DNA from: Longimicrobiales bacterium
GTDB taxonomy: Bacteria > Gemmatimonadota > Gemmatimonadetes > Longimicrobiales > Gaopeijiaceae
Direction of reading: 5' to 3'
Assembly (NCBI GenBank): GCA_965204735.1
Contig: OZ242008.1
Coordinates: forward strand, 576,001 to 640,000
Length of the DNA stretch: 64,000 nucleotides
Shown here piece after piece: positions 16,784 through 42,692 of this stretch (within the stretch, counting starts at the first letter, position 1; each line of letters opens with the position of its first letter). The position numbers and the translations under genes are program-made. The notes beneath the pieces were generated by a model. It worked only from the letters and a program-made list of their open reading frames with translations, did no database searches and was not told the DNA's origin.

Positions 16784-16873
16784 GTGCCCCCCAAGTGCTC
16801 GCGGGCGCGCCTCGGCATCGACGTGCCGTGGCCGGTCGTCTTGGGTGCCCCAGCAAGCGCTCGCGGGCGCGCC
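16784..16873. repeat. 28/29-bp direct repeat pair, 33-bp intervening sequence, 61-bp period
   Basis: GTGCCCCCCAAGTGCTCGCGGGCGCGCC (16784-16811) and GTGCCCCAGCAAGCGCTCGCGGGCGCGCC (16845-16873); partial third copy to 16886. Confidence 0.75.
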
Positions 16874-16899
16874 CCCCAAGCGCTCGTTAGCTTCCCGGA

Positions 16900-17808
16900 A
16901 TGACGGAAACCGCCCTCGCCTCCAACGCCGCCTTCCTCGCCGACAACGTCTTTGCCGCCAAGTCCGTCGTCGCGACGCTGGTCCTGGGGGTTCTTTGGCT
17001 GCTGGAAGGGCTCGTTCCCATGTTCGAGGGCCGTCGCGAGCGCGCCCGGCACGGCGCCGCCAACGTGGTGCTGGGCGTGGGCAACGCCGCCGTCGCGGCC
17101 TTGGTCTTCGCAGGCGCCACCCTGGTCGCGACCGAGTGGGCCCGGGCCGGCTCCTTCGGCGTCCTCCACTGGCTGGGCGTGGCCGGCGTCTGGGGCTACG
17201 CCGCCGGCTTCGTCCTGCTGGACCTCTGGCAGTACCTCTGGCACCGCCTGAACCACCGCGTCCCGTTCCTCTGGCGCTTCCACGCCGTGCATCATGCGGA
17301 CCGGGAGATGGACGCCACCTCCGGTCTCCGCTTCCACACCGGCGAGATCGTGTTGTCGTCCGCAGCCCGGCTGGCCGTCCTGCCCCTTCTGGGAATGACT
17401 GTCGCGCAAGTGCTGGTCTACGAGGCGGCGCTGCTTCCGGTCGTCTTCTTTCACCACAGCAACGTCCGACTTTCGGCGCACGCCGACCGTTCCCTGCGCT
17501 GGCTCGTAGTCACCCCCTGGATGCACTGGGTGCACCACTCCAACCATCAACCCGAAACCGACTCCAACTACTCCAGCGTGTTCTCGTTCTGGGACCGGCT
17601 CTTCGGCAGCTTCCGACTGGTCGGCGACCCCCGGCGGCTCACCCTGGGCCTGGACCACCCCGACCGCCGCGAGTGGGCCACGTTGCCCGGAATGCTGGCG
17701 ATGCCCTTCCGCAGGGGAGGACGCCGGCGGCCTGCTCAGCAAAGGAGAAGCGGCGAGCCGAGTCCGGAGCGGCCCTTGCGCGCAACCAGCAAGGCCGAAG
17801 AGCAGTGA
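16900..17808 (+). CDS. Sterol desaturase / fatty acid hydroxylase family membrane protein
   Basis: His boxes YLWHRLNH, FHAVHH, FHHSN, HWVHHS; NYSSVFSFWDRLFG. Confidence 0.88.
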   Translation: MTETALASNAAFLADNVFAAKSVVATLVLGVLWLLEGLVPMFEGRRERARHGAANVVLGVGNAAVAALVFAGATLVATEWARAGSFGVLHWLGVAGVWGYAAGFVLLDLWQYLWHRLNHRVPFLWRFHAVHHADREMDATSGLRFHTGEIVLSSAARLAVLPLLGMTVAQVLVYEAALLPVVFFHHSNVRLSAHADRSLRWLVVTPWMHWVHHSNHQPETDSNYSSVFSFWDRLFGSFRLVGDPRRLTLGLDHPDRREWATLPGMLAMPFRRGGRRRPAQQRRSGEPSPERPLRATSKAEEQ

Positions 17809-18908
17809 AGGAAGTCCGCGTCTTCGCGCCGGCCACCGTCTCCAACATCGGCTGCGGCTACGACGTCTTCGGCATGGCGCTGAAGGGACCGGGCGACGTG
17901 GTGTCGGCGCGCATTGCGGAAGGGAAGGGGGTCGTCTCGGTTTCGGTGTCCGGCGACGGCGGACGCGTGCCGGCGGACCCGGCTCGGAACTGCGCGGCGG
18001 TGGCGGCCCAGGCGGTGATGGACCGGCTCGCAGGTGGACGTGGGACGGCGCCGCCTTCCGCTCCGCCCGGCGCCCCCCGGGTCGGCGTGGCTCTGGAAGT
18101 GCGCAAGGGGCTTCCCCTGGCGTCGGGACTGGGCGGGAGCGCGGCCAGCGCAGTCGCCGGGGCCGTGGCGGCGGACGCGCTCCTGGGCGGTGGACTCGAC
18201 CGAACGGCCCTTCTCGAATGCGCCATGACCGGCGAGCGGCATGGCTCGGGGGCTACCCACGCCGACAACGTCGCGCCGGCGCTGGCCGGGGGGTTCGTCC
18301 TGGTGCCGCCCGGCGAGCCCCTTCGGATCGTCCAGCTGCCGACGCCGGCCGAACTCGTGGCCGCGGTCGTGCGTCCGCACATGGAAGTGGAGACGGCGAA
18401 GGCCCGTGCGCTGCTGGGCGACGCAATAGCCCTGTCGGCCGGCATCCGGCAGTGGGGGAACGCGGCGGGTCTCGTGGCCGGACTGTACGCGGAGGACTGG
18501 GAGCTGCTGGGCCGCTGCATCGAGGACGCGGTGGCGGAGCCTGCCAGGGCGCAGCTGGTTCCCGGATTCGAGACGGCGAAGCGACGCGCGCTGGAGGCCG
18601 GCGCGGTGGGCGCAGGTCTGTCTGGTTCCGGGCCTTCCGTATTCGCCTTCTGCAGGGGACGGTCGGCCGCCCGAAAAGCGGCTGGAGCCATGGCCGACGC
18701 CTTCCGCGACGAAGCAGGCGTCGACGCGGACGTGATCGTCTCGCCGCCGAGCCCGGTGGGTGCGAGGGTGCTGGGAACCGCCGCTCGCTCCGGCACCCTG
18801 TCCGGAGCCGCGCCGGCGGCCGGGGACGCATCCGCCGAGCTGCCGTCCGCCGGCGCCGCGAGCGCCGGGGCGCCGTCCGCCAGCGCGGGAGCGGTCGCAG
18901 GCGGGTGA
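17805..18908 (+). CDS. thrB: Homoserine kinase
   Basis: APATVSNIGCGYDVFG, PLASGLGGSAAS (GHMP motif), HADNVAP, LSGSGPS; low-complexity C-terminal tail. Confidence 0.92.
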   Translation: MKEVRVFAPATVSNIGCGYDVFGMALKGPGDVVSARIAEGKGVVSVSVSGDGGRVPADPARNCAAVAAQAVMDRLAGGRGTAPPSAPPGAPRVGVALEVRKGLPLASGLGGSAASAVAGAVAADALLGGGLDRTALLECAMTGERHGSGATHADNVAPALAGGFVLVPPGEPLRIVQLPTPAELVAAVVRPHMEVETAKARALLGDAIALSAGIRQWGNAAGLVAGLYAEDWELLGRCIEDAVAEPARAQLVPGFETAKRRALEAGAVGAGLSGSGPSVFAFCRGRSAARKAAGAMADAFRDEAGVDADVIVSPPSPVGARVLGTAARSGTLSGAAPAAGDASAELPSAGAASAGAPSASAGAVAGG

Positions 18909-20401
18909 GGCTGACCAGCACGGGCGCCCGGCTGCACCGGTCCGGCGCGAATCCTGCCGAAGCCGGCTCCGCCCCGCCACCTCGCGCGCGTGGACTTTCC
19001 CGTCGCCGGGCCGCGGCGGACCGGGCGTTTGGCCCCGCCACCTCGCGTGGGTGGACCTTCCAAGACGCGCTCTTCCTGGGCCAAGCTCCCGACGGCGGCC
19101 TGTTCGTTCCCGAGCAGCTGGCCCCGCTGCCGCGCGACCAGCTGCGCGCAATGGCCGGAAAGTCCTTCGCCGAGCGGTCGTTGGTCGTCGCCAGCCACCT
19201 CCTTGCCGACGAGATCGCCGAGAACGTCCTGCGCCAAGTCGTCCACGACGCCCTGGACTTTCCGGTTCCCCTGCGGCCCCTGGAACCCGGCGTCCACGTG
19301 CTGGAGCTCTTCCACGGCCCGACCTGCGCCTTCAAGGACGTGGGGGCCCGCTTCATGGCCCGCATGATGTCGGCGCTTCGCCCCGACGCCGACGCCCCGC
19401 TCACGGTCCTGGCCGCCACCTCCGGCGACACGGGCGGCGCCGTGGCCCACGCGTTCCACGGCTTGCCGGGCGCGCGCGTGGTCGTCCTCTACCCCCGGGG
19501 CAGGGTGAGTCCTCGCCAGGAGGCCCAGTTCGCCACCCTCGGCGGCAACGTCGCGGCGGTGGCCGTTCGAGGCGCCTTCGACGACTGCCAGCGACTTGCC
19601 CGGGAGGCCTTCGCCGACCGAACCCTTTGCGCGGCCCACGGACTGACTTCGGCCAACTCCATCAACGTCGGCCGCCTCCTGCCGCAGGTCTTCTACTACG
19701 TGCACGGCTGGGCGGAGCTGGCGACGGGCGAAGCAATGGCCGAACGGGAGCTGGTCGTCTCCGTCCCTTCCGGCAACTTCGGCAACTTGACCGCCGGAGT
19801 CGTGGCCCGGGCGCTGGGCGTGCCGATCTCGCGCTTCGTCGCCGCCACCAATGCCAACTCCGTGGTGCCCGACTACCTGGCGACCGGCGGCTTCCGGCCT
19901 CGCCCGTCCGTGGCCACCCTCTCGAACGCCATGGACGTGGGGGACCCAAGCAACTTCCGCCGCATCCGCCACGCCTTCGGCGGCAACCTGCACGCGATCC
20001 GGACCGTCCTCGCAGGCTCCGCGTGGACGGACGACCAGACCCGGGAGTGCATTCGGGAGCTGTGGCGCGACCAGGCGGTGGCGATCGACCCCCACACCGC
20101 CGTGGGCCTGCTGGGGCTGCGGCAGGAGCTGGCGCGACGCGAAGCGGCCCAGCGGGATGGGGTCCCGCCCGACCCGCCCGGAGCTTTGCCGGGGAGGCGT
20201 TCCAACTCGCGTGGCGCCGCGGGAATCGTTCTGAGCACCGCTCATCCCGCGAAGTTCGCCGAAGTCGTCGAGCCGTTGACGGGACAGCCGGTTCCGGTCC
20301 CGGCCGGGCTGGCGCGGGCGATGGAGCTGCCGCGCCGCTCGGTTGTCGTCGAGCCGAAGCTGGGCGCGCTGATCGAGGTGCTGGAGTCCAGCGGCCCGTA
20401 G
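18905..20401 (+). CDS. thrC: Threonine synthase
   Basis: APDGGLFVP, LELFHGPTCAFKD (PLP Lys), ATSGDTG, SANSINVGRL, PSGNFGN, TAHPAKF; carries two low-complexity insertions. Confidence 0.92.
   Translation: MRLTSTGARLHRSGANPAEAGSAPPPRARGLSRRRAAADRAFGPATSRGWTFQDALFLGQAPDGGLFVPEQLAPLPRDQLRAMAGKSFAERSLVVASHLLADEIAENVLRQVVHDALDFPVPLRPLEPGVHVLELFHGPTCAFKDVGARFMARMMSALRPDADAPLTVLAATSGDTGGAVAHAFHGLPGARVVVLYPRGRVSPRQEAQFATLGGNVAAVAVRGAFDDCQRLAREAFADRTLCAAHGLTSANSINVGRLLPQVFYYVHGWAELATGEAMAERELVVSVPSGNFGNLTAGVVARALGVPISRFVAATNANSVVPDYLATGGFRPRPSVATLSNAMDVGDPSNFRRIRHAFGGNLHAIRTVLAGSAWTDDQTRECIRELWRDQAVAIDPHTAVGLLGLRQELARREAAQRDGVPPDPPGALPGRRSNSRGAAGIVLSTAHPAKFAEVVEPLTGQPVPVPAGLARAMELPRRSVVVEPKLGALIEVLESSGP
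18971..19061. repeat. 30-bp direct repeat pair with 61-bp period inside the 5' end of thrC
   Basis: GCCCCGCCACCTCGCGCGCGTGGACTTTCC (18971-19000) and GCCCCGCCACCTCGCGTGGGTGGACCTTCC (19032-19061), 27/30 identical. Confidence 0.8.
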
Positions 20402-20531
20402 CCTCTTCCGGCAGCAGGCGGCTTCGCCAACCGGCGTCGAACGGCGTGCGCAGGGGTTGAACTCCGGCCCTGATTCGTGATCTTGCAAGCCCCCGAATCA
20501 CTCCCACGGCCCCCACAAGGAGTGTCCGAAA

Positions 20532-21584
20532 ATGGCAGAGTTCGCAGCGAACGTGGTCCGAGTCGGGATCGAGGAGCATCCCAACGCGGACGCCCTGGAG
20601 ATCGGCAAGGTCAACGAGGTGACCGTGATCGTCGCCAAGGGGAAGTACCGAACCGGCGACCTGGCCGCCTACATCCCCGAGGCGGCGATCGTCCCCGACG
20701 ACGTGCTCGAGCTGCTGGGTCTGGTCGGCAAGCTGGCGGGCAAGAAGAAGAACCGGGTCAAGGCGATCAAGCTGCGCGGCGTCGTGTCCGGCGGACTGCT
20801 TCACCCCCTCGGCGTCGGCCGGCTGGAGGGCGCGGAGCTGGCCGAGGGCGACGACGTGACGGAGCTCCTGGGCCTCGTCAAGTACGAGCCGCCGATCCCC
20901 GTGAGCATGGGCGGGCAGGTCTTCGCCGCCCACGGCGCGACGGTCAAGTACGACATCGACAGCGTCCTTCGCTACCCCGAGCTCCTTCCCCGCGAGACGC
21001 CGGTGGTCGTCACGGAGAAGCTCCACGGGACTTGGTGCTGCATGGGCTGGCACCCGGAGTTCGGCGAGATCGTGAGCTCGAAGGGGGTGAGCGCCCGCGG
21101 ACTGGCGTTCCGCCTCGCGGAGGAGAACGCCGGCAACCTGTACGTCCGCGCCTTCCGCGCCCACGAGGAGTGGCTGCTCTCCGTCCTGGGGCGCCACCGA
21201 GAGACGGGGACGCCGTACTACGTCTTGGGCGAGGTCTTCGGCCGCGGCGTGCAGGACCTCCACTACGGCCTGCCCAACCCGGGCTTCCGCGTCTTCGACG
21301 TGCGCGTCGGCCCCCGCTACCTGCCCTGGCCGGAGGTGGAGGCGCTGGCGACGGCCCACGACGGTCCCGGCGTAGTTCCCGTCTTGGGCGTCGTGGAGGA
21401 TTGGCCAGCGGCGGAGAAGCACGTGTCCGGCGCCACGACCTTCGGCGGCGCGCACATCCGAGAGGGCATCGTCATGCGTCCGCGGGACGCGTCCTGGAGC
21501 CTGGGCGACCCGGTGGAACGTCCCATCGCCAAGTGGGTCAGCGACGCCTACCGCGTGAGGAAGGGCGGCACCGACTTCAACTAA
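20532..21584 (+). CDS. ATP-dependent RNA ligase, DRB0094/Rnl5 family
   Basis: N-terminal OB-like domain (HPNADALE, YIPEAAIVP, KLRGVVSGGL); nucleotidyltransferase motifs TEKLHGT, GEVFG, FRVFDV, EGIV, AKWVS; AAGGAG RBS. Confidence 0.88.
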   Translation: MAEFAANVVRVGIEEHPNADALEIGKVNEVTVIVAKGKYRTGDLAAYIPEAAIVPDDVLELLGLVGKLAGKKKNRVKAIKLRGVVSGGLLHPLGVGRLEGAELAEGDDVTELLGLVKYEPPIPVSMGGQVFAAHGATVKYDIDSVLRYPELLPRETPVVVTEKLHGTWCCMGWHPEFGEIVSSKGVSARGLAFRLAEENAGNLYVRAFRAHEEWLLSVLGRHRETGTPYYVLGEVFGRGVQDLHYGLPNPGFRVFDVRVGPRYLPWPEVEALATAHDGPGVVPVLGVVEDWPAAEKHVSGATTFGGAHIREGIVMRPRDASWSLGDPVERPIAKWVSDAYRVRKGGTDFN

Positions 21585-21599
21585 CTTAGCTCAGCTCGG

Positions 21600-21616
21600 A
21601 CGGACGGGTTCCAGCC
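21600..21616 (+). repeat. Left copy of an exact 17-bp direct repeat flanking the giant surface-protein gene
   Basis: ACGGACGGGTTCCAGCC, identical at 35059-35075. Confidence 0.8.
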
Positions 21617-21715
21617 GGAGAGATTGTCCGGTGGTAGCGGTCAGCCAAAAGCAACAGTACTCTTCAAGGGCGAGAGTGCTCTGCAGGGGACGACAGCTGG
21701 GAGATCAGCGGGCGA

Positions 21716-24700
21716 GTGTTCCAGTCCAAGACGATGAGGGCAGCAGTCCCGGGTGTTCGGGACTCGGTGTGCGGTGGCAAGGCGTGGACTGGTGTCGTCA
21801 CCTTCGTATTGCTGGTGTTGATCGGCGCGGCGCCTTCGAGCCGAGCTGAAGCCCACTTCGACGGCGACGGTGTGAGCATTCCGGCGAACGGGCTGAAGCT
21901 GAACGGTGCGGCGGTCAAGGCGAGGAACGGCCCCGCGCTTGACGCGAACCCTGCCCACGGCGCGGCGGAGGGCGGCGCGTCGCGCAAGGTGGACGGCAGC
22001 GGGCACCGGCCGGATGCCGACGGGGACCCGGAGGCAGTGGACGCGGCAAGCAGCGAAACGCCGTCGATTGACGACGTTGGAGACTTTGACGCCGAGCGGG
22101 AAGTGCTTTCGGAAGACGCATCGGCGGTCTTGATGCATCAAGACGTTGATGCGGAGGGCGGCCTGGCAACGGAACCGGTGGTTGGCGCCCAGTCGTCGGC
22201 GCTGACGGTGCAGCGGTTCAACTTCCGCGGCTTGGCGGCCGGCGACAGCACGTACTATCGAGACGAAGTAGTGCGGGTGCGCGTGTTCTTCACGCAACAC
22301 GTCACGGTGAACACGTCGGGCGGCGAGCCGTACCTGGACCTGACGGTGGGCTCGACGACTCGGCGGGCCGACTACGGCTCCTCGCGGCAGAACTACCTGG
22401 ACTTCCGGTACCGGGTGCAGGCGGACGACTTCGACGGCGACGGTGTGAGCGTTCCGGCGAACGGGTTGAAGCTGAACGGCGCGACGGTGATCGCGAGGAA
22501 CAACCCAGCGGTGGTCGCGGACCCTGCGCACGGCGTGGCGGAGGGCGGCTTGTCGCGCAAGGTGGACGGCAGCCAGTTCCGGCCGCCGGGGCTGGCGGTG
22601 GATCGGATCGACTTCCGGAGTGCGCCGGAGGGCGACAGCACGTACTACCGGGACGAGATCGTGCGAGTGCGTGTGTTCTTCACGCAGCAGATCGCGGTGG
22701 ACGCGTCGGGCGGGCTGCCGTCGGTGGACCTGACGGTGGGCACGGAGACGCGGCGTGCGGTGATGGGTTCCAGGAGCTGGAACCAGCACCGGCTGGAGCT
22801 TCGGTACGTGGTACAGGCGGGCGATTTCGACGGCGACGGCGTGAGCGTTCAGGCGAACAGCTTGTCGCTGAACGGGGCGGTGGTGACGGCGCAGGGCGAC
22901 GCTTCGGTCGTGGCGGAGACGGGGCATGGGGCGGTGGAGGGGGGCGCGTCGCAGAAGGTGGACGGCAGCCAGTACCGGCCGCAGGGGCCGACGCTGTCGG
23001 GGGAGGGGGCGAGCGTGGCGGAGGGCGGAGCGGGCGCGGAGACGGACCTCGGGTTCGCTGTGCGTCTAGCGCCGGCGGCTGCGTCTCGAGTGACGGTGGA
23101 GTACGCCGATGCGGGGAGCGGGACGGCGACGTCGGGGGTGGACTACGCGGCGATCGAGGGGGGGACGCTGACGTTCGAGCCGGGCGACACGCTGAAGACG
23201 GTGTGGGTGAAGGTGCGGGGCGACGACGAGGTGGAGGGCGACGAGACGGTGGTGCTGTCGTTGAGCGGCGCGACCGGCGCGGAGCTGGCGACTTCGACGG
23301 TCAGGGGCACGATCGTGAACGACGACGAGGCGGCGCCGGTGCTGACGGTGCAGCGGTTCAACTTCCGCGGCCTGGGAGCCAGCGACAGCACGTACTATCT
23401 GAACGAAGTGGTGCGTGTGCGAGTGTTCTTTACGGAGCATGTGACGGTGGACACGTCGGGTGGCGAGCCGTACCTGGACCTGACGGTGGGCTCGACGACT
23501 CGGCGGGCCGCATACAACTCTTCGCGGCAGAACTACCTGGGCTTCAGCTACCGGGTTCAGGCGGACGACTTCGACGGCGACGGTGTGAGCGTTCCGGCGA
23601 ACGGGCTGAAGCTGAACGGCGCGACGGTGACGGCGAGGAACAACCCAGCGGTGGTCGCGGACCCTGCGCACGGGGTGGCGGAGGGCGGCTTGTCGCGCAA
23701 GGTGGACGGCAGCCAGCTCCGGCCGCAGGGGCCGACGCTCTCTGCGGGGGGGACGAGCGTGGTAGAAGGCGACTCGGGTGCGGAGACGGACCTCGAGTTC
23801 GCGGTGCGACTGGCGCCGCCGGCGGCGTCTCGTGTGACGGTCGACTACGCCGATGCGGGGAGCGGGACGGCGACGTCGGGCGTGGACTACGCGGCGATCG
23901 GGAGCGGGACGCTGACGTTCGAGCCGGGCGACACGCTGCAGACAGTGAGCGTGACGGTGCGGGGCGACGACGAGGTGGAGGACGACGAGACGGTGGTGCT
24001 GTCGTTGAGCGGCGCGACCGGCGCGGAGCTGGCGACTTCGACGGTCAGGGGCACGATCGTGGACGACGACGAGGCGGCGCCGGCGCTGACGGTGCAGCGG
24101 TTCAACTTCCGCGGCCTGGGGGCTGCTGACAGCACGTACTATCTGAACGAAGTGGTGCGTGTGCGCGTGTTCTTCACGGAGCATGTGACGGTGGACACGT
24201 CGGGCGGCGAGCCGTACCTGGACCTGACGGTGGGTTCGACGACTCGGCGGGCCGCATACAACTCCTCGCGGCAGAACTACCTGGGCTTCAGCTACCGGGT
24301 TCAGGCGGACGACTTCGACGGTGACGGCGTGAGCGTTCCGGCGAACGGGCTGAAGCTGAACGGCGCGACGGTGACGGCGAGGAACAACCCAGCGGTGGTC
24401 GCGGACCCTGCGCACGGGGTGGCGGAGGGCGGCTTGTCGCGCAAGGTGGACGGCAGCCAGCTCCGGCCGCAGGGGCCGACGCTCTCTGCGGGCGGGACGA
24501 GCGTGGTCGAGGGCGACTCGGGTGCGGAGACGGACCTCGAGTTCGCGGTGCGACTGGCGCCGGCGGCGGCGTCTCGTGTGACGGTCGACTACGCCGATGC
24601 GGGGAGCGGGACGGCGACATCGGGGGTGGACTACGCGGCGATCGGGAGCGGGACGCTGACGTTCGAGCCGGGCGACACGCTGAAGACGGTGAGCGTGACG

Positions 24701-27700
24701 GTGCGGGGCGACGACGAGGTGGAGGACGACGAGACGGTGGTGCTGTCGCTGAGCGGCGCGACCGGCGCGGAGCTGGCGACTTCGACGGTCAGGGGCACGA
24801 TCGTGGACGACGACGAGGCGGCGCCGGCGCTGACGGTTCAGCGGTTCAACTTCCGCGGCCTGGGGGCTGCTGACAGCACGTACTATCTGAACGAAGTGGT
24901 GCGTGTGCGCGTGTTCTTCACGGAGCATGTGACGGTGGACACGTCGGGCGGCGAGCCGTACCTGGACCTGACGGTGGGCTCGACGACTCGGCGGGCCGCA
25001 TACAACTCCTCGCGGCAGAACTACCTGGGCTTCAGCTACCGGGTTCAGGCGGACGACTTCGACGGTGACGGTGTGAGCGTTCCGGCGAACGGGCTGAAGC
25101 TGAACGGCGCGACGGTGACGGCGAGGAACAACCCAGCGGTGGTCGCGGACCCTGCGCACGGCGTGGCGGAGGGCGGCTTGTCGCGCAAGGTGGACGGCAG
25201 CCAGCTCCGGCCGCAGGGGCCGACGCTCTCTGCGGGGGGGACGAGCGTGGTCGAGGGCGACTCGGGCGCGGAGACGGACCTCGAGTTCGCTGTGCGCCTT
25301 GCGCCGCCGGCGACGGCACGTGTGACGGTGGCGTACGCGGACGCGGGGAGCGGGACGGCGACGTCGGGGGTGGACTACGCGGAGATCGGGAGCGGGACGC
25401 TGACGTTCGAGCCGGGCGACACGCTGCAGACAGTGAGCGTGACGGTGCGGGGCGACGACGAGGTGGAGGACGACGAGACGGTGGTGCTGTCGTTGAGCGG
25501 CGCGACTGGTGCTGAACTGGCGACTTCGACGGTCAGAGGCACGATCGTGGACGACGACGAGGCGGCGCCGGCGCTGACCGTTCAGCGGTTCAACTTCCGC
25601 GGCTTGGGAGCCAGCGACAGCACGTACTATCTGAACGAAGTGGTGCGTGTGCGAGTGTTCTTCACGGAGCACGTGACGGTGGACACGTCGGGCGGCGAGC
25701 CGTACCTGGACCTGACGGTGGGTGCGACGACTCGGCGGGCCGCATACAACTCTTCGCGGCAGAACTACTTGGGCTTCAGCTACCGGGTTCAGGCGGACGA
25801 CTTCGACGGCGACGGCGTGAGCGTTCCGGCGAACGGGTTGAAGCTGAACGGCGCGGCGGTGACGGCGAGGAGCAACCCGGCGGTGGTCGCGGACCCTGCG
25901 CACGGCGTGGCGGAGGGCGGCTTGTCGCGCAAGGTGGACGGCAGCCAGCTCCGGCCGCAGGGGCCGACGCTCTCTGCGGGCGGGACGAGCGTGGTCGAGG
26001 GCGGCTCGGGCGCGGAGACGGACCTCGAGTTCGCTGTGCGCCTTGCGCCGCCGGCGACGTCTCGTGTGACGGTCGCCTACGCCGATGCGGGGAGCGGGAC
26101 GGCGACGTCGGGGGTGGACTACGCGGCGATCGAGGCAGGCACGCTGACGTTCGAGCCGGGCGAGACGTTGAAGACGGTGTGGGTGAAGGTGCGGGGCGAC
26201 GACGAGGTGGAGGACGACGAGACGGTGGTGCTGTCGCTGAGCGGTGCGACCGGCGCGGAGCTGGCGACTTCGACGGTCAGAGGCACGATCGTGGACGACG
26301 ACGAGGCGGCGCCGGCGCTGACGGTGCAGCGGTTCAACTTCCGCGGCTTGGGGGCCAGCGACAGCACGTACTATCTGAACGAAGTGGTGCGTGTGCGCGT
26401 GTTCTTCACGGAGCACGTGACGGTGGACACGTCGGGCGGCGAGCCGTACCTGGACCTGACGGTGGGCTCGACGACTCGGCGGGCCGACTACGGCTCCTCG
26501 CGGCAGAACTACCTGGACTTCCGGTACCGGGTTCAGGCGGACGACTTCGACGGCGACGGCGTGAGCGTTCCGGCGAACGGGCTGAAGCTGAACGGCGCGA
26601 CAGTGACGGCGAGGGACAACCCAGCGGTGGTCGCGGACCCTGCGCACGGCGTGGCGGAGGGCGGCTTGTCGCGCAAGGTGGACGGCAGCCAGCTCCGGCC
26701 GCAGGGGCCGACGCTCTCTGCGGGCGGGACGAGCGTGGTCGAGGGCGACTCGGGTGCGGAGACGGACCTCGAGTTCGCGGTGCGCCTTGCGCCGCCGGCG
26801 ACGGCGCGTGTGACGGTCGACTACGCCGATGCGGGGAGTGGGACGGCGACGTCGGGGGTGGACTACGCGGCGATCGAGGGCGGGACGCTGACGTTCGAGC
26901 CGGGCGACACGCTGCAGACGGTGAGCGTGACGGTGCGGGGCGACGACGAGGTGGAGGGCGACGAGACGGTGGTGCTGTCGTTGAGCGGTGCGACCGGCGC
27001 GGAGCTGGCGACTTCGACGATCACGGGGACGATCGTGGACGACGACGGGCCCGAGCCCCGCGGTCCAACGGTGGAGCGGATCGTCTTCCGCGGCTTGGCG
27101 GCCGGCGACAGCACGTACTACCGGGACGAAGTAGTGAGGGTGCGCGTGCGCTTTTTACAGCACGTCACGGTCGACACGACGGGCGGTGAGCCGTACCTGG
27201 ACCTGACGGTGGGCTCGACGACTCGGCGGGCCGACTACGGCTCTTCAAGGCAGAACTACCTGGACTTCCGGTACAGGGTACAGGCGGGCGACTTCGACGG
27301 CGACGGTGTGAGCATTCCGGCGAACGGGCTGAAGCTGAACGGCGCGACGGTCAAGGCGAGGAACGGCCCCGCGCTTGACGCGAACCCTGCGCACGGCACG
27401 GCGGAGGGCGGCGCGTCGCGCAAGGTGGACGGCAGCGGGCACCGGCCGCAGGGGCCGACGCTCTCTGCGGGCGGGTCGAGCGCGGCGGAGGGCGGTTCGA
27501 ACACAGAGACGGATCTGGAGTTCGCGGTGTGGCTTGGCCCGCCGGCGGCGTCTCGTGTGACGGTGGCGTACGCGGACGCGGGGAGCGGCACGGCGACGTC
27601 GGGGGTGGACTATGCGGCGATCGAAGCAGATACGCTGACGTTCGAGCCGGGCGAGACGCTCAAGACGGTGAGCGTGACGGTGCGGGGCGACGACGAGGTC

Positions 27701-33700: not shown

Positions 33701-34918
33701 CGCGACGAGCTGCTCACGCGGTCGTCGTTCCGGTTCTCGCCGGGCGCAGGCGCCGGCGGCGGCGCGCAGGCGGCGCCCGGCGGGTGGACGTTCTGGGGCC
33801 GAGCCAGCGCCGGCGGCTTCGAGGGCCGGCCCGAAGAGGACCTTGCGCTGGACGGCACGGTGCGCTCGGCGTACTTGGGCGCCGACTACCGGTTCGGAGC
33901 GGGGCCGCTGGTGGGCCTGGCGCTGTCGCGAACGACGAGCTTGATCGGCTTCGAGAGCGGGATCAACGGCACGGGCACGGTGGACGCGCGCCTGACGAGC
34001 TTGTACCCGTACGCGCAGTGGTCGCCGCGCGCGGGGTTGAGCGTGTGGGGGCTGGTCGGGGCGGGCCGGGGGACGGCGGCGCTGTCGGAGGACGCGACGC
34101 GCCGCCGGTACGAGACGGGCATGGGGATGGCGATGACGGCGGCGGGCGTGCGCCAGCGGCTGACGGGCGTGCTGGCCGTGAAGGCGGACGCTTTCGAGGT
34201 GCGCACCGATGCCGACGAGGCGGAGGGGTTGGCGGGCGTGGTGGCGAACGTGCGCCGGTTGCGCGTGGCGTCCGAGGTCGTGGGGCGCTGGGGGCTGTCG
34301 GGCGGGTCGTCGATTGCTTCGCAGGTGGAGGTGGCCGCGCGCTTCGACGGCGGGGACGCGGAGACGGGGGCGGGCGCGGAGGCGGGCGCGGGGCTCGGCT
34401 ACGTGCACGAGGGCATCGGGCTGAGCGTGGACGCGCGGGGCCGGGCGCTGGTGGCGCATCAGGCGTCGTCGTTCCGGGAGTGGGGCGCAAGCGTCGCGGT
34501 GCGTCTGCGGCCGAGTGGCGAGGCGGGCGGGTTGTCGTTCACTCTCGAGCCGAGCTGGGGCAATGCGGCGAGCGGCGTGGCGACGCTCTGGCGGGAGGGA
34601 TCGGCAGCGGGCGTGCCCGGCGTGCCGCTGGGCGGCTCCCCGTCGCCGGCGGGGGGCGTGCCGCTTGCGAGCGGGCGCGCGAGCGCCAGCCGGCTCCACA
34701 TGGAGGTGGACTACGCGATCGTGCTGGCGGACGGCGGGCGAGTGGCGCCGTTCGGGCGCTGGGCGGTCGAGGGCGGTTCGGGGCGTCGGCTGAACGTGGG
34801 GGTCCGGCTGTCGGTGCTGGAAGCGGCGACGCTCGACCTCTTCGGCGAGGAGGTGTCGGGCGGCGCCGAGCCCGCAGACCGCCGACTAGGCCTGCAGGGC
34901 GCAGTGCGGTTCAGGTGA
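21716..34918 (+). CDS. Giant (4400 aa) Calx-beta / Ig-like repeat surface protein with C-terminal autotransporter-like beta-barrel
   Basis: Signal-like hydrophobic stretch; nine Calx-beta domains (TATSGVDY...TLTFEPG...GDDEVEDDE...GTIVDDD); many DxDxDG..ANxLxLNG..KVDG Ig-like domains; He_PIG-like and FRDPDGD domains; LAAFGRSVG helix; barrel ending VRFR. Confidence 0.85.
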   Translation: MFQSKTMRAAVPGVRDSVCGGKAWTGVVTFVLLVLIGAAPSSRAEAHFDGDGVSIPANGLKLNGAAVKARNGPALDANPAHGAAEGGASRKVDGSGHRPDADGDPEAVDAASSETPSIDDVGDFDAEREVLSEDASAVLMHQDVDAEGGLATEPVVGAQSSALTVQRFNFRGLAAGDSTYYRDEVVRVRVFFTQHVTVNTSGGEPYLDLTVGSTTRRADYGSSRQNYLDFRYRVQADDFDGDGVSVPANGLKLNGATVIARNNPAVVADPAHGVAEGGLSRKVDGSQFRPPGLAVDRIDFRSAPEGDSTYYRDEIVRVRVFFTQQIAVDASGGLPSVDLTVGTETRRAVMGSRSWNQHRLELRYVVQAGDFDGDGVSVQANSLSLNGAVVTAQGDASVVAETGHGAVEGGASQKVDGSQYRPQGPTLSGEGASVAEGGAGAETDLGFAVRLAPAAASRVTVEYADAGSGTATSGVDYAAIEGGTLTFEPGDTLKTVWVKVRGDDEVEGDETVVLSLSGATGAELATSTVRGTIVNDDEAAPVLTVQRFNFRGLGASDSTYYLNEVVRVRVFFTEHVTVDTSGGEPYLDLTVGSTTRRAAYNSSRQNYLGFSYRVQADDFDGDGVSVPANGLKLNGATVTARNNPAVVADPAHGVAEGGLSRKVDGSQLRPQGPTLSAGGTSVVEGDSGAETDLEFAVRLAPPAASRVTVDYADAGSGTATSGVDYAAIGSGTLTFEPGDTLQTVSVTVRGDDEVEDDETVVLSLSGATGAELATSTVRGTIVDDDEAAPALTVQRFNFRGLGAADSTYYLNEVVRVRVFFTEHVTVDTSGGEPYLDLTVGSTTRRAAYNSSRQNYLGFSYRVQADDFDGDGVSVPANGLKLNGATVTARNNPAVVADPAHGVAEGGLSRKVDGSQLRPQGPTLSAGGTSVVEGDSGAETDLEFAVRLAPAAASRVTVDYADAGSGTATSGVDYAAIGSGTLTFEPGDTLKTVSVTVRGDDEVEDDETVVLSLSGATGAELATSTVRGTIVDDDEAAPALTVQRFNFRGLGAADSTYYLNEVVRVRVFFTEHVTVDTSGGEPYLDLTVGSTTRRAAYNSSRQNYLGFSYRVQADDFDGDGVSVPANGLKLNGATVTARNNPAVVADPAHGVAEGGLSRKVDGSQLRPQGPTLSAGGTSVVEGDSGAETDLEFAVRLAPPATARVTVAYADAGSGTATSGVDYAEIGSGTLTFEPGDTLQTVSVTVRGDDEVEDDETVVLSLSGATGAELATSTVRGTIVDDDEAAPALTVQRFNFRGLGASDSTYYLNEVVRVRVFFTEHVTVDTSGGEPYLDLTVGATTRRAAYNSSRQNYLGFSYRVQADDFDGDGVSVPANGLKLNGAAVTARSNPAVVADPAHGVAEGGLSRKVDGSQLRPQGPTLSAGGTSVVEGGSGAETDLEFAVRLAPPATSRVTVAYADAGSGTATSGVDYAAIEAGTLTFEPGETLKTVWVKVRGDDEVEDDETVVLSLSGATGAELATSTVRGTIVDDDEAAPALTVQRFNFRGLGASDSTYYLNEVVRVRVFFTEHVTVDTSGGEPYLDLTVGSTTRRADYGSSRQNYLDFRYRVQADDFDGDGVSVPANGLKLNGATVTARDNPAVVADPAHGVAEGGLSRKVDGSQLRPQGPTLSAGGTSVVEGDSGAETDLEFAVRLAPPATARVTVDYADAGSGTATSGVDYAAIEGGTLTFEPGDTLQTVSVTVRGDDEVEGDETVVLSLSGATGAELATSTITGTIVDDDGPEPRGPTVERIVFRGLAAGDSTYYRDEVVRVRVRFLQHVTVDTTGGEPYLDLTVGSTTRRADYGSSRQNYLDFRYRVQAGDFDGDGVSIPANGLKLNGATVKARNGPALDANPAHGTAEGGASRKVDGSGHRPQGPTLSAGGSSAAEGGSNTETDLEFAVWLGPPAASRVTVAYADAGSGTATSGVDYAAIEADTLTFEPGETLKTVSVTVRGDDEVEDDETVALSLSGASGAELASRTVTGTIVDDDGSRPTVSIDSATVREPGPGEAVALSFTVSLSAPSARQVTVRYADAGTGTATPGGDYDAVTPGTVVFAAGDTVQTVEVTVRGDVLDEPVETIVLALAGPVNADIPNGGARGVGTIVDDDDAPTLSADSPSVEEGKGEGRRLTFTLALDRPSGRGLALYYADAGTGTATSGADYEEVVPDTLFFEPGETTKSIDVMVVGDTLQELDETVVLRLSAADSSLLAVSKALIAGTIVDDDGEDLAPSFGDAVVPAQRWVRACEVRAVQLPAAEGGNTPLTYGLAPALPLGLAFDAGRRTIAGTPEREQPVTNYRYTATDADGDSATLSFTAQVELLECGLEADGLDADGEPEAADAASSETPSIGDAGDFDAEQEAFSEDATAVSMHQEDDAEGGLATDPVVGAQSSALTVQRIVFRGLAVGDSTYYLNEVVRVRVFFTQHVTLNTSGGKPYLDLTVGTTTRRAEFGSKRQNYLDFRYRVQADDFDGDGVSVPASGLKLNGARITAQNDTSAHANIAHDSAAGGASRKVDGSKYRPPRVRSVTFTNSPASGGTYGYGEKIEATVAFDRRVLVSTTGGTPSLTLTIGAGARQATLSDRPGTRTRLTFSYTVQAGDVAPGGASIAANALRLNGGTITSDADSATNAALAHGGVRADTTRRVDGRRGRPPKVGEIAFGAPAPTDSVYYRGDSITVRVAFDDSVAVDTTSGKPQVALTIGTATRQAALSARAGKTLDFVYVVQATDRDSDGVSIAANALALNGATIRGTGAAAARNADVTHPPVAASAARTVDGSKVGAPKVSSVAFAGLPPDGDTYHYGDEVRVQVVFDGRVAVDTVGGKPQLALSMGTRRRQAVFAPSASTGTTLVFAYRVQSADVDSDGASIAANALALNGGSIKAEADSATAALVTHDSLAADPARKVDGRPRITSLEFYDPPSSVLPSAGVYGFGERIRILARYDQKLILDDRAWVSLEVGTDTVQVRSSWRLRMGDRALLFTYVVGQGAMDSDGVRVPKGALSLNGGMLKADSDGVTRARLDHGGIPADSSRRVNGSVKPAPRPVVTLVDDPPASGNTYTWNERIEASVYFSVDVRVTGRPRLTMNVGTGTRQLVADEYGGRGPLTFEYVVQAADMDADGISFPANALSLPSGATIRSAADTSVHAVLSHDSVPADPQRKVDGQSVQAPKVVRTFIGPPPSRDNTYTRGETFFTSMVFDRDVAVDATGGRPRVALEIGDSTRYATYWGPARGRPQELQFVYVVQAGDRDADGVSIKANGLSANGGSITLLGDTTPAVLSHGRLPTGYKVDGGRVGAPHARWAAFNAPVKGDTYLRGERIEVTISFDRVASVDTAGGRPRIALQVGDSTRYATYLGPSRAQAHIALGYVVRAGDRDADGLSIGANALELNGGTITAPGDTTAAVLTRATVPTSAAHKVDGSRAGVAEVQWLAVGPPPSRDSTYTRGEVLYASVHFDRAVAVDTAGGRPRIALEIGDSTRYATYSHQFTNTPARQVFKYVMQASDRDSDGLSVAANALELNGGSITAPDDTVSADLSHAPVAADSAFKVDGSRTGAPHVRWMWFNAPASGDTYLRGEHVGVIVAFDRDASLDTIGGRPRIALQVGDSTRYATYLSTPGTRANYGFTYVVQAGDRDADGLSIAANALELNGGTITAPGDTTAAAVLTHDSVPTSAAHKVDGSRTAGDVAAEENRAPEVVSEIAPKTMEVASPPAVVALSAHFRDPDGDELRYLAASATPRSVRVDEAGGVLTIHAAAVGQSTVTVRAVDPEGAEAEQSFLVTVEASRADRARILKRSLAAFGRSVGTETVEAIGGRLGAADDPTAMGAMGAAHLQVGGRSLSCVGAAERCDLQELARQAAGLLGVRPSHGAGSLASALRAAAKGGHDAGALRGLADAFGRSAQIGAAGSFGAQDGFGAGGLGTGSFGAQDGFGATGGRASGFGATGAGGRGDRPRWGRLVAMDPVTRDELLTRSSFRFSPGAGAGGGAQAAPGGWTFWGRASAGGFEGRPEEDLALDGTVRSAYLGADYRFGAGPLVGLALSRTTSLIGFESGINGTGTVDARLTSLYPYAQWSPRAGLSVWGLVGAGRGTAALSEDATRRRYETGMGMAMTAAGVRQRLTGVLAVKADAFEVRTDADEAEGLAGVVANVRRLRVASEVVGRWGLSGGSSIASQVEVAARFDGGDAETGAGAEAGAGLGYVHEGIGLSVDARGRALVAHQASSFREWGASVAVRLRPSGEAGGLSFTLEPSWGNAASGVATLWREGSAAGVPGVPLGGSPSPAGGVPLASGRASASRLHMEVDYAIVLADGGRVAPFGRWAVEGGSGRRLNVGVRLSVLEAATLDLFGEEVSGGAEPADRRLGLQGAVRFR
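22950..27795 (+). repeat. 744-bp (248-aa) intragenic tandem repeat, about 5.5 near-identical units plus a diverged one
   Basis: GCTGAC...CAGCGGTTCAACTTCCGC anchor recurs at 23341, 24085, 24829, 25573 and 26317 (exact 744-bp steps). Confidence 0.95.
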
Positions 34919-38749: not shown

Positions 38750-40052
38750 AGAGTCGGGCGAGGAGCAGCAGCGCCGTCACGTACATCAGCGCGCCCAGCA
38801 GGAAGGGGGCGCCCGGCAGCTGGAAGGGCGCCGCGGGCGACGTGAAGTAGCCGAAGAGCAGGCTCGTGAAGAGGATCGGCGCGACCACGGCGGTCAGGCT
38901 CATGAGCGACTGGATGCCGCCCTGGACCTTGCCCTGGTCCCGGGCCGTCACGGCGCCGGCCACCAAGCTCTGGATCGCCGGACCCGCGATGCCTCCGACC
39001 GACCCGAACACGATGAACACCAGCAGCATCCACCCTTCCGTGGCCAGTCCGTAGCCCAGAAAGGTCACGACGGCGACGGCCAGTCCGCCGACGATCGCCC
39101 GCCGTTCGCCCCAGCGTCGGATCACGGGCTGCACCAGCCCGCCCTGCACGACCGCTGCCATCACGCCCACCAGTCCCAGCGAGAGCCCGTTGGCGCGCTC
39201 GTCCCAGCCGAACTTGTGGCCGGTGTAAAGCACCCACGCCGTCTCCAGCCCCCGCTGGGCAAGTCCGATGAAGACGAACGACACCGAGAGCCCCGCCAGC
39301 AGACGGTTGGACCCGAGCACGAAGAGGCTGCCGACCGGGTTGGCCTTCAGCCAGCTGAAGCTGTCGCGCTTCTCCGGGGGCAGGGACTCGGGCAGGACGA
39401 AGAAGCCGTAGAGCCAGTTGACCAGGGCGAGGCCGGCGGCGGCGAAGAACGGCAGGCGCAGGTCGACGCCGCCCAGCAGTCCGCCCGCAACCGGTCCAAA
39501 GATGAAGCCCAGGCCGAAGGCGACGCCCACAAGGCCGAAGTTCCGCGCCCGCGTCTCGGGGGGCGACACGTCGGCGATGTAGGCGTGGGCGGTCGTGAAG
39601 CTGGCGCCCATGATCCCGGCGACCACCCGCCCTGCGAAGAGCCATCCGATCGTCGGCGCGAAGCCCATGATCAGGTAGTCGACGCCCAGGCCGAAGAGCG
39701 AGACGAGAATCACCGGCCGGCGGCCCACCCGGTCCGAGAGCGCGCCCAGCAGCGGGGCGAAGAGGAACTGGACCGCTGCGTACACCATTGCCAGGACGCC
39801 GAACCAGCGGGCCGCCTCCGACGTGCCCCCGCCGACGAACTCCTTGATCAGCTCCGGCAAGATGGGGATGATGATCCCGATCCCCAGCACGTCGATGAAC
39901 ACCGTGATCAAGATGAATATCACGGCGGCGGGCCGGCCCTGGCCGGTGGTCGGCTGCTCCGCGTCGGCGCTTGGCGCGTCGCCGGGCGCGAGCTCTCGCC
40001 GCCCGCCTCCCGGCGCGGGCTCCCGACCCGCCGTTTCGTCGCTTCCGGTCAC
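38715..40052 (-). CDS. MFS transporter, TCR/Tet (DHA1) family
   Basis: [25 protein letters not shown] (motif A), [10 protein letters not shown] (motif C), about 12 TM. Confidence 0.88.
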
Positions 40053-40132
40053 TCTACATTCCTTGGACGCGCGGGTGGACCGGAACCGTCGAGCCAAGGA
40101 GACGCGGCGACCGGAAGGCGGCCCGCAAATAT

Positions 40133-40222
40133 GGCGCGTCCGACCCAAGGGGGGAACGACTGCGCCCGGTCGACGCGGCGCGGCCCCCAGAACGGCGCGT
40201 CCGACCCAAGGGGGGAACGACT
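40133..40222. repeat. Exact 29-bp direct repeat pair, 32-bp intervening sequence, 61-bp period
   Basis: GGCGCGTCCGACCCAAGGGGGGAACGACT at 40133-40161 and 40194-40222; the second copy supplies the RBS of the next gene. Confidence 0.9.
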
Positions 40223-40224
40223 CC

Positions 40225-40968
40225 ATGACCTTCGACGCCTTCGAGGAAGAGGCTCGCCGGGCTTTCGACCGAATCCCCGAGCGCTACCGGGAGGGCGTGG
40301 ACGGCCTTGTCGTGGAGCGCGACCCGCAACCCCATCCCGACTTCCCCTACGTCTACACCCTGGGCCTGTGCGACACGGAGAGCTACCCGTCGGGCTGGGA
40401 CGGGCCGGACACCGTGCGGTCGCGGGTCGTCCTCTACTGGGGCTCGTTTCGGGCGCTGGCCAAGCTGGACCCGCGCTTCGACTGGGAGGAGGAGACCTGG
40501 GAGACCCTAACCCACGAACTGTACCATCACCTGGAGTCGCTGGCGGGCGAGGACGAGCTGTGCGGGGTGGACTACGCCATGGACCAAACGTTCCGGCGGG
40601 ACCACGAAGAGGAGTTCGATCGGGAGTACTACCGCAGCGGAGAACGGATCGGGCCGGGCGTCTACAACGTGGACGGCGACGTCTACATCGAGCAGGAGTG
40701 GGGACCGGACGAGCTTGCTCGGGCCGACGCGCTCCGGTTCGCGTGGGCGGGCCGCGAGTTCAGCGTGGAACCACCTGCCGTGCTGGGCGACGTGCACTTC
40801 GTTCGCATCGTGGACGGCGTGCCGGACGCGCCCCGACGCCTGGAGCTGGCGCTGGTGAGCAAGCCGTCGTGGCTCGAGCGGATTCGCGGCTTCCTGCGTG
40901 GACGGGAGCCCGAGATATGGGAGTCGGAAGCGCGCCCCAACCAGCCAGGGCAGCCCGGGGGGTCGTGA
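40225..40968 (+). CDS. Zincin-like metallopeptidase (DUF1025-like) with C-terminal extension
   Basis: MTFDAFEEEARRAFDRIP start, TLGL, LYWGSF, THELYHH (HExxH). Confidence 0.75.
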   Translation: MTFDAFEEEARRAFDRIPERYREGVDGLVVERDPQPHPDFPYVYTLGLCDTESYPSGWDGPDTVRSRVVLYWGSFRALAKLDPRFDWEEETWETLTHELYHHLESLAGEDELCGVDYAMDQTFRRDHEEEFDREYYRSGERIGPGVYNVDGDVYIEQEWGPDELARADALRFAWAGREFSVEPPAVLGDVHFVRIVDGVPDAPRRLELALVSKPSWLERIRGFLRGREPEIWESEARPNQPGQPGGS

Positions 40969-41035
40969 CGGATCGTGGACTGGTCGTGACGGATCGCGGA
41001 CTGGAGTTGACACGCCGCAAGATCTTAGCTACCAA
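40961..41035 (+). promoter_or_regulatory. 21-bp tandem duplication followed by a sigma70-like promoter
   Basis: GGTCGTGACGGATCG(T/C)GGACT twice (40961-41002); TTGACA 41007-41012, 17 bp, weak -10 TACCAA. Confidence 0.4.
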
Positions 41036-41123
41036 TCCGACCACACCGAGGATGCCGACGTTTCCAGCCGTGGTGGTGCCGAGCGGTGGCAAGCGTCCGC
41101 ATCTGCTGCGGAGGGGGGAAGCC

Positions 41124-41912
41124 ATGCGGAAGATCGGCAACCAACTCGTCCCGCTGTTCGTCGCCTTAGTAGTGGTGGTTCTGCCGTCCGCGTGCAGGGA
41201 CGCCACGGACCTGGCGGAAACCACCAGCCAAGACGCGGAAATGACCGCTGCCGAGCTCGAGGCCCTCGAGCTCGAGGCCCTGTGGCTGCAGATGCCCGGC
41301 AACGACCGCGAGTTCAACCGGCTGCTGGTGGAGGAGCTGCGGACCGGGGTCCCCATGGACTGGGACGAAGCTCTCCGCGCCCTGGAGGCGGACGGCCGGC
41401 GCTTCCCGCGGTTCAGGGTCGTGAACGACGACGACCTCGCGCCCGAGCAGATCGCCGAGGCGGACGCTGCCGAAGCAGAGACCCTGGCGATCATGGAGGA
41501 GTGGCTGCGGCTGCCCGGCAACGACCGCGAGTTCAACCGGCTGCTGGTGGAGGAGCTGCGGACCGGGGTCCCCATGGACTGGGACGAAGCTCTCCGCGCC
41601 CTGGAGGCGGATGGATGGCGCTTCCCGGCCATGACGCGCCTGACAGGCGCCCCGCTTCCGGCTAGCGTCGCATCTGCGTCGGACCGCGAGATGTACCGGG
41701 ACATCGTGCGCGACCCGGCCTACTACGGCAGCGAGCGATACTATCTGGATGCCGTGGTCGCGCTCTCGGTCCTTAGGGGGCAGCAGCGCGCGGCGTGCCA
41801 TGGCGTGCGGCAGGCCCGTACTCGAGTGGCCTGGAGAGACGACGACGGCCGCGAACGCGTGTCGCGGTACGAGTCTTGGGTGGGACGCAGCTGCCTGGAC
41901 CGAAGTTCCTAG
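41124..41912 (+). CDS. Hypothetical lipoprotein with internal duplication
   Basis: GGAGG RBS; MRK-hydrophobic-PSAC lipobox-like signal; PGNDREFNRLLVEELRTGVPMDWDEALRALEADG occurs twice. Confidence 0.6.
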   Translation: MRKIGNQLVPLFVALVVVVLPSACRDATDLAETTSQDAEMTAAELEALELEALWLQMPGNDREFNRLLVEELRTGVPMDWDEALRALEADGRRFPRFRVVNDDDLAPEQIAEADAAEAETLAIMEEWLRLPGNDREFNRLLVEELRTGVPMDWDEALRALEADGWRFPAMTRLTGAPLPASVASASDREMYRDIVRDPAYYGSERYYLDAVVALSVLRGQQRAACHGVRQARTRVAWRDDDGRERVSRYESWVGRSCLDRSS

Positions 41913-41966
41913 AAACGAAGCGTCGGGAAGAGGTCGGCTGGTAGACAGCCCAGCCGGGGAGTCGAG

Positions 41967-42587
41967 ATGGGACCAGGGAAGAAGCGCGTCGCCCGCAGTG
42001 CGTTCCGTGACCGCCGAAGCGCGGTCCTGCTGGTTCCGGCCACCCTGCTCCCCGTGTGGTGGGGATGCGCGTCGGGCGGGTCCGGCGGCGGCGAGGACGC
42101 GACGCCGACACCGGCGCAGGTGCGAAGCGTCGTGCGGGTCGAAGGCTACGCGCCGGTGGAGATCTTCAACGAACCCGGCGTCGGCGTCCGCACCATCGCC
42201 GTCGAGACCAGGACGGCGTGGCGGGCCCTGGGAGGGGTCTACGAGCAGATGGGCATCCCCGTCACGCAGTCGGATCCCCGGTCGATGCAGCTCGGCAACC
42301 CCGGCTACTTGGCGCGACGGGTGGACGGCGACCGCATGAACAGCTTCATCGACTGCGGCTCCGACTTCTCGGGCCCGCTCGCGAACCAGTACGACATCAC
42401 CTTGTCGGTGGTCACCAGGCTGACCTCCAAGGGGCCCGAGAGCACGGAAGTGCTGACGATGATGGACGCCTACGGCAAGCCCCGGGCGGTCAGCGGCAAC
42501 TCGATCCACTGCCAGTCCCGGGGCGTGCTGGAGATGAGGGTCGCCCAGAAGGTGGCGGATGCCTTGGAGAAGGGCCCGCAGCGGTAG
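41967..42587 (+). CDS. Hypothetical exported lipoprotein
   Basis: Hydrophobic leader ending WGC; globular-looking body with a Cys pair (IDCG ... CQSRGVLE); GC3-rich codons. Confidence 0.6.
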   Translation: MGPGKKRVARSAFRDRRSAVLLVPATLLPVWWGCASGGSGGGEDATPTPAQVRSVVRVEGYAPVEIFNEPGVGVRTIAVETRTAWRALGGVYEQMGIPVTQSDPRSMQLGNPGYLARRVDGDRMNSFIDCGSDFSGPLANQYDITLSVVTRLTSKGPESTEVLTMMDAYGKPRAVSGNSIHCQSRGVLEMRVAQKVADALEKGPQR

Positions 42588-42602
42588 GCGCCGGTTGTAA
42601 CT

Positions 42603-42692
42603 CGGCCGCCCGCGGGACCACGGGTCGCCGGCGGCCTTGATGCTCCGGACCCACTGCGTGGCGCGGCCGCCCGCGGGACCACGGGCCGCCGG
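42603..42692. repeat. 29-bp palindromic direct repeat pair, 32-bp intervening sequence, 61-bp period, between convergent genes
   Basis: CGGCCGCCCGCGGGACCACGGG(T/C)CGCCGG at 42603-42631 and 42664-42692 (28/29 identical). Confidence 0.9.

Follow-up and report, generated by a model that had tools for sequence, protein, structure and literature searches.

Two classes of short insertion, each made up of a direct repeat enclosing spacer-sized intervening DNA, are dispersed over the single-contig genome of a Longimicrobiales bacterium (G000; 4.14 Mb, 69% GC) and are interpreted here as scars of its own type I-E and type I-G CRISPR integrases, a reading to which we assign a probability of roughly 0.88. 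The class with a 61 bp period very probably derives from type I-E off-target integration, while the class with a period of 72-75 bp (approximately 73 units) was probably left by the type I-G Cas4/Cas1-Cas2 enzymes. Four 61 bp units are located in a 64,000 nucleotide stretch of contig OZ242008.1 (C1:576001-640000; hereafter the window, in whose own numbering these units and their neighbouring genes are given), and the sequencing runs containing this stretch include sponge metagenomes. During integration by Cas1-Cas2, the two spacer ends are joined to opposite strands at a distance of one repeat length, and the target is duplicated when the gaps are filled. The four units probably arose when the bacterium's own type I-E Cas1-Cas2 inserted a 33 bp spacer and duplicated approximately 28 bp of target, and they belong to approximately 34 such units in the genome. 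An off-target origin had been proposed for them in a sequence-only reading of the window, and it is supported by an excess of repeat pairs at this lag, by a type I-E locus in the genome and by empty alleles that lack exactly one unit.

All four direct-repeat pairs were recovered at the proposed 61 bp start-to-start spacing, three of them as clean, ungapped 61 bp units and one with a single-base indel. In unit 1 (16784..16873), repeats of 28 bp (16784-16811) and 29 bp (16845-16873) share 26 matches and flank a 33 bp insert (16812-16844). An extra base in the second copy gives a spacing of 61 bp start-to-start and 62 bp end-to-end, and as a result of this indel the unit was missed by the ungapped genome-wide catalogue described below. 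Unit 2 (18971..19061; repeats 18971-19000 and 19032-19061, insert 19001-19031) lies within the 5′ end of the threonine synthase gene thrC, with 27/30 repeat matches and a 31 bp gap (28+33 in register). Unit 3 (40133..40222; repeats 40133-40161 and 40194-40222, insert 40162-40193) and unit 4 (42603..42692; repeats 42603-42631 and 42664-42692, insert 42632-42663) show 29/29 and 28/29 repeat matches, respectively, each around a 32 bp gap. The concern that similarity at 40133 extends into the spacer did not hold, as the in-register insert is 0.34 identical to the DNA one period upstream, compared with 0.28 for random sequence. Three window units at one lag are not expected by chance (P ~6e-6 over 91 lags, given a background of 0.007 per lag per 64 kb), and a block-shuffled 1.5-Mb control contained no units at lags 55-80.

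Direct-repeat pairs were catalogued genome-wide by ungapped matching at lags of 40-130, with both CRISPR arrays excluded. Removal of 165/319 raw pairs for internal periodicity left 154 clean pairs, among which the anticipated excess at lag 61 was evident as 35 units at lags 59-62 (repeat mode 28 bp). A larger second class, which the sequence-only reading had overlooked, comprises 81 pairs at lags 71-77 (repeat mode 37 bp), a period that fits the type I-G array; one of these pairs, the last unit of that array, was also taken out, leaving 80. The remaining 79 lags hold 38 units, of which only 11 are at non-multiples of three; hardly any units fall at lags 63-70 and 78-130. Eight of the 115 entries were dropped before the curated counts, six as protein repeats (C1:701748, 702260, 2982009, 3405041, 3631633 and 3189705) and two as tandem stretches (C1:76062 and 2106837); three of the eight are conserved at full length in the congener G001. 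The resulting 107 units comprise 34 of period 59-62 (E class; four at 59, thirteen at 60, fifteen at 61 and two at 62; median repeat 28 bp) and 73 of period 71-77 (G class; median repeat 37 bp), in which some short entries of 19-22 bp remain that may be background. The median identity between copies is 0.96 in the E class and 0.93 in the G class, with 10 and 12 perfect pairs, respectively, which suggests that the units are of differing age.

Both periods correspond to one repeat plus one spacer of an array in the same genome. The type I-E locus, including the cas1/cas2 genes that had been predicted to accompany 61 bp arrays, encodes Cas3, Cas7e (TIGR01869), Cas1 (Pfam match; C1:2074825-2075493) and Cas2e (TIGR01873) ahead of an array that starts at 2075981, has a 28 bp repeat and shows a period of 61 in 53/54 intervals. 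In the type I-G locus, genes for Cas7g, Cas4g/Cas1g (NF049935; 764 bits) and Cas2 precede an array with a 36-37 bp repeat and periods of 70-79. The Cas1 reading frame is open in both loci, and no third cas1 was found in the genome, both copies being CRISPR-linked.

Several further features of the CRISPR loci can be observed. The type I-E leader, which separates cas2 from the start of the array (C1:2075924-2075981), is only approximately 55 bp long, compared with approximately 65 bp in G001, and shows no IHF site by eye. Near its trailer end, the type I-E array is broken by approximately 170 bp of other sequence (C1:2079340-2079510), which begins with a short direct repeat and resembles an insertion-element remnant, and a perfect 37+37 bp unit of type I-G geometry is situated at C1:2079716, approximately 100 bp past the array end. 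Two Cas7g genes (L005:4777-5730 and L005:10145-11392) represent two type I-G interference modules, both of which precede one cas4g/cas1g-cas2 set and one array. In G001, a degenerate single-spacer mini-array (L047:8140) is found in the type I-E cas locus, approximately 10 kb before the main array.

Alleles without the unit were found in conspecific strains and in congeners, bearing out the expectation that sister alleles would show clean one-unit indels: exactly 61 bases at 40133 and exactly 60 at C1:3130388 and C1:3392779. Contigs of four runs (X1, X4, X12 and X13) were aligned to window positions 39500-43500. In the X4 contig, from a strain approximately 99% identical, exactly 61 bases are absent at unit 3 (40132->40194; 29 ambiguous letters); the unit is carried by X1, X12 and X13, and unit 4 is present in all four runs. 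In the alignment of C1:3121500-3131500, the C1:3130388 unit (27+33) is carried by X1, and X4 and X13 lack exactly 60 bases there. X4 in turn holds an extra 61 bp unit (34 repeated and 27 new letters; L074:11804-11837) with no counterpart in G000, and the target of this private unit is a C-run followed by a G-run. The insertions that are carried thus vary among strains of the species. Among the congeners, which were covered to different extents (G001, ~2.0 of 3.1 Mb; G002 and G003, ~0.4 Mb each), G002 differs by exactly 60 bases at C1:3392779, unit 3 is represented by one copy in both G001 and G003, and unit 2 by a single copy and a 63-base gap in G001. These single copies set the direction of the change as insertion in G000. 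Length differences between congeners are noisy, G000 being longer in most intergenic regions, and loose differences were not counted as support. They include those at unit 4, where G001 is 104 bases and G003 13 bases shorter and both align poorly, being too diverged, and at unit 1, where the related record L175 is approximately 78 bp shorter and the sequence likewise aligns poorly.

The intervening sequences were expected to be captured DNA with identifiable protospacers and a shared protospacer adjacent motif (PAM). The first part of this expectation stands for the units as a whole: ten of the 107 inserts (4/34 in the E class and 6/73 in the G class) match another chromosomal locus at >=85% identity, with the match ending at the insert borders. 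Such sharply bounded sources were found for only 4/1500 random 35-mers (p 9e-10), among which 166/1500 have any second copy, and for 0/90 array spacers (p 0.002); 0/54 spacers of the type I-E array match the genome. The traced inserts derive from ten different loci, and for the C1:3130388 unit, the X4 contig of the source locus stops matching at both ends of the insert. As to the second part, no shared PAM could be established. No source was found for any of the four window inserts.

The sites of insertion in the E class resemble the type I-E repeat. In 23 E-class targets of 26-30 bp, compared with no alignment freedom, C is found at positions 7-9 and G at positions 20-22, which coincide with the inner palindrome of the type I-E repeat. 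The C-left/G-right skew of 3.35 (0 +/- 0.84 expected) was reached by 0/2000 random sets, and the best match to the type I-E repeat averages 14.3, compared with 12.5 for random sequence (p 2e-11). The C-run and G-run noted earlier in the window repeats are thus a property of the class rather than of the individual site, as the window repeats match the type I-E repeat at 13-14/28, compared with 12.5 +/- 1.5 for random sequence. At this level of similarity they do not carry the cognate repeat sequence that marks a functional array. Their predicted folds range from -7.6 to -18.6 kcal/mol on the better strand, compared with -14.8 kcal/mol for the type I-E repeat.

These observations can be accommodated by a model in which each integrase would act at ordinary chromosomal sites, keeping the spacer length while the target length slips by 1-2 bases. 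The type I-E enzyme would read the inner C/G palindrome, and the type I-G enzyme would behave as a nearly sequence-blind ruler. Units that break genes would be lost by selection, and the scars would be mostly inert as guides. Because guides are unlikely to be produced from the scars, self-derived spacers may persist in them and not in the arrays. Strand-asymmetric damage between the two copies, as might arise by deamination in the gap, was considered separately and rejected, with transitions numbering 11 against 18 and 54 against 44 and showing no asymmetry.

A number of observations weigh against the attribution of both classes to the CRISPR integrases. No source in the genome was found for 97/107 catalogued inserts or for any of the four in the window. 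No PAM could be fixed from the traced sources, the four E-class sources fitting an A-purine dinucleotide only after a choice of orientation or register. TTN is the PAM of type I-G systems, and it is found beside 1-2/6 G-class sources, which is near chance given the register freedom. A search for protospacers in the DNA of relatives gave 11 hits at >=80%, compared with five for reversed controls, and nothing useful for the PAM. No target motif was detected in the G class (information 8.61, compared with 8.29-8.85 in controls), and its targets are barely more similar to the type I-G repeat than random sequence is (15.8 against 15.5; p 0.054). As there is no repeat-like target, the G class is assigned by geometry, as something that works like type I-G integration, and not as a proven member. 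Short periods are more frequent in the E class than in the array: 13/29 units outside genes are at 59-60, which never occurs in the array. The G-class periods outside genes are shorter than those of the type I-G array (73.2 against 74.4; p 0.003). Differences between G000 and its congeners at period-72 G-class units are 68, 69, 78 and 93 bases, and -2 for one period-73 unit, in loose alignments. At the one G-class site compared in conspecific strains (C1:3122381), no empty allele was found, the site being filled in the three spanning runs and gapped in X6. An empty allele can furthermore also arise through deletion between the repeats. Finally, G001 has a near-identical type I-E system and no units at lags 59-62 outside the cas locus in 2.04 Mb, indicating that presence of the enzyme is not sufficient, and no cause for the species-specific load was found among the host factors and cas proteins compared.

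Part of this evidence could be explained if only the 61 bp class were of type I-E origin and the 72-75 bp class resulted from some other sequence-blind capture, by another integrase or by fragment-filling repair of a staggered break, its resemblance in size to the type I-G array being coincidental. This would agree with the lack of a target motif or PAM in the G class, with periods approximately 1 bp below those of the array, and with the 5-6 bases that one source has in common with the end of the repeat. Furthermore, G001 (92% complete), in which no Cas4g/Cas1g was found, nevertheless has four pairs at 72-74 that are not leucine-rich repeats in 2.04 Mb, one of them a perfect unit of type I-G geometry (38+36+38; L115:5138). 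We consider this explanation unlikely, as the repeat mode of 37 bp and the insert of approximately 35-38 bp both fit the type I-G array, the neighbouring lags are nearly empty, six G-class inserts have sharply bounded sources and the genome has no third cas1.

Less probable by far is an origin of the units as ordinary tandem duplications or protein repeats with one copy part-decayed, supplemented by chance pairs in 69% GC DNA. Short tandem duplications are common in G000 (96 loci per Mb), unit 1 overlies one of approximately 24 bp, and the eight discarded catalogue entries proved to be of this kind. A decayed copy should, however, retain similarity to its neighbour, and the inserts are 0.28 and 0.31 identical to the DNA one period away, compared with 0.28 for random sequence, only 1/107 exceeding 0.6. 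The period of 61 is not divisible by three, and the exact one-unit empty alleles and the captured inserts largely refute a decayed duplication. The congener G003 is richer in tandem duplications (169 per Mb), yet has no units in 360 kb, so that general tolerance of insertions is also an insufficient explanation.

Casposases, which are homologous to Cas1, also generate target duplications, and the units might in principle be what remains of a casposon (a large element with a solo cas1 and terminal inverted repeats) or of some other transposon, in the form of the duplicated target and a short residue of the element. This is highly improbable given that the only two cas1 genes are both CRISPR-linked and that the inserts are just ~33-38 bp long, form no recurring family when compared with the genome and, where traced, come from ten loci. 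An assembly artefact of one genome, for which it might be argued that the runs matching best could stem from the sample that yielded the genome, is refuted for units 3 and 4, which are spanned by contigs from runs X1 and X13 of other studies and from strains that differ from the window at many positions, and has next to no likelihood overall.

Accepting integration by the two CRISPR systems as the source of the units, their distribution relative to genes points to selection. Based on a rough gene model of 2785 genes, only 25/107 units are inside predicted genes, compared with 77% of random sites, and the period is a multiple of three in 24/25 in-gene units, compared with 34/82 outside genes (p 4.5e-7). 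The only in-gene unit with a period not divisible by three is unit 2 of the window, in thrC (18905..20401, + strand; TIGR00260, 265 bits with a cut-off of 167.1). The thrC frame is open through this unit and the predicted protein is 30 residues longer than that of G001 before a conserved WTF motif. The nearest ThrC relatives carry Longimicrobiales/Gemmatimonadota labels. Both repeat copies exceed the single G001 copy by 2 bases, giving a net change of 63 bases, and as such thrC stays open. The insertion may have restored a frame already lost to a 2-base slip, or further indels upstream may have compensated for it; unit 2 may have served as a thrC frameshift suppressor.

At four sites (C1:1622700-1622880, 2906578-2906760, 3057375-3057515 and 3122381-3122560) adjacent units are paired, and these are nascent arrays with novel repeats, a first step toward new arrays. 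At the last of them, C1:3122381, strains X1 and X13 carry a further 73 bp copy. Considerably more tentative, and in our estimate somewhat short of an even chance, is the broader proposal that adaptation is a standing and still-active mutator with two rulers. It might have supplied in-frame insertions of 20-25 residues to approximately two dozen proteins, rescued a frameshifted thrC through unit 2 and seeded multi-spacer arrays with new repeats, while preserving an unfiltered natural prespacer pool (at least ~9% self DNA) in scars that escape autoimmune purging.

The load of units appears to be concentrated in this species. No units were found in 360 kb of G003 or in 367 kb from 20 other Gemmatimonadota loci, and the 340 kb of G002 contain two outside the array, with periods of 70 and 63, while the density in G000 predicts 8-9 units in each of these three small samples; a metagenome scan yielded six distant loci. 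A missing host factor was tried as an explanation and rejected, as G000 and all four relatives examined retain HU/IHF-family genes (two in G000), mutS and recA. A set of 97 proteins of the relatives is weak or missing in G000, and no core repair or nucleoid gene was identified among the 75 scanned with Pfam, in a comparison that covered ~2.0 of 3.1 Mb of G001 and ~0.4 Mb each of G002 and G003. The Cas1e and Cas4g/Cas1g proteins of G000 look ordinary beside their orthologues in G001 and G003. A higher event rate in this species, beyond a tolerance of insertions, would be consistent with this pattern, and raised or induced cas expression is our guess as to what lies behind it.

Off-target integration as a mechanism is already known; the novelty lies in its extent here, in the presence of two rulers and in the evidence from populations. 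In the available text on the E. coli type I-E system (10.1101/148544; PMC7054753; PMC6698737), non-canonical integration in the 2018 study was based on overexpression, with circumstantial natural evidence in two other species, and whether such integration is common in nature was called unclear (10.1101/148544). The units described here share with the off-target integration and neo-CRISPR arrays of that study (Nivala, Shipman and Church 2018) a spacer-sized insert, a duplicated repeat-like target outside the array, type I-E geometry and the capacity to seed new arrays. As far as the accessible text goes, they differ in that the enzymes were overproduced in E. coli, whereas approximately 100 natural units, fixed or polymorphic, are observed here, with two geometries, a signature of selection and strain-level empty alleles. 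Non-CRISPR sites used in vitro by Pyrococcus furiosus Cas1-Cas2 are described as sharing repeat features and being cut one repeat length apart (PMC6698737); those events took place on plasmids, and the 37 bp class of G000 shows no repeat-like features. In the excerpts available for the type III-A system of Thermotoga profunda, Cas1-Cas2 is promiscuous without a DNA-bending host factor and HU suppresses off-target events in vitro (PMC13769266), making promiscuity without HU a candidate cause, but G000 keeps two HU/IHF-family genes. The type I-G Cas4/1-Cas2 enzymes, of the same family as those considered here, are reported to process the PAM and to integrate directionally at the array (PMC10274657), and the larger class agrees with this type in the length of both repeat and spacer; no passages on chromosomal off-target events were found in the accessible parts of that paper. 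Ectopic spacer acquisition in Streptococcus thermophilus, as far as the available sections describe it, also takes place away from the leader, within the array at true repeats (PMC7999890; PMC5338259), whereas the G000 units are at unrelated chromosomal sites. No report of a natural genome-wide off-target load was found in the literature searched, in which coverage of subscription papers was limited and the 2018 supplements may list natural examples.

The approximately 100 natural events, together with empty alleles in strains alive today, allow direct tests of which targets two integrases prefer in vivo, compared side by side, of what adaptation costs in fitness, of how new arrays begin, and of what proportion of captured spacers is self DNA before autoimmunity removes it (10/107, compared with 0/90 in arrays). 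A lag peak at the array period furthermore provides a simple signature that can be screened for across prokaryotes.

Of the remaining window units, unit 1 is intergenic and located just upstream of the ATG at 16900 of an open reading frame (ORF) encoding 302 amino acids (16900..17808, + strand), whose product shows a weak match to a lipid hydroxylase model (NF052566; 72.8 bits, below the cut-off of 475). The stretch duplicated in unit 3 includes a purine-rich region immediately ahead of the ATG at 40225 of a 247 amino acid ORF (40225..40968, + strand), for which no NCBIfam family was matched, and the second copy keeps this region intact. Unit 4 is situated between a stop codon at 42587 and the end of an ORF in the opposite orientation. 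An intragenic tandem-repeat stretch at 41292-41512 shows a 219-base difference in run X4. Very long open frames on overlapping strands, of up to 4400 and 2847 amino acids, extend over 21716-34918 and 42694-51260, respectively.

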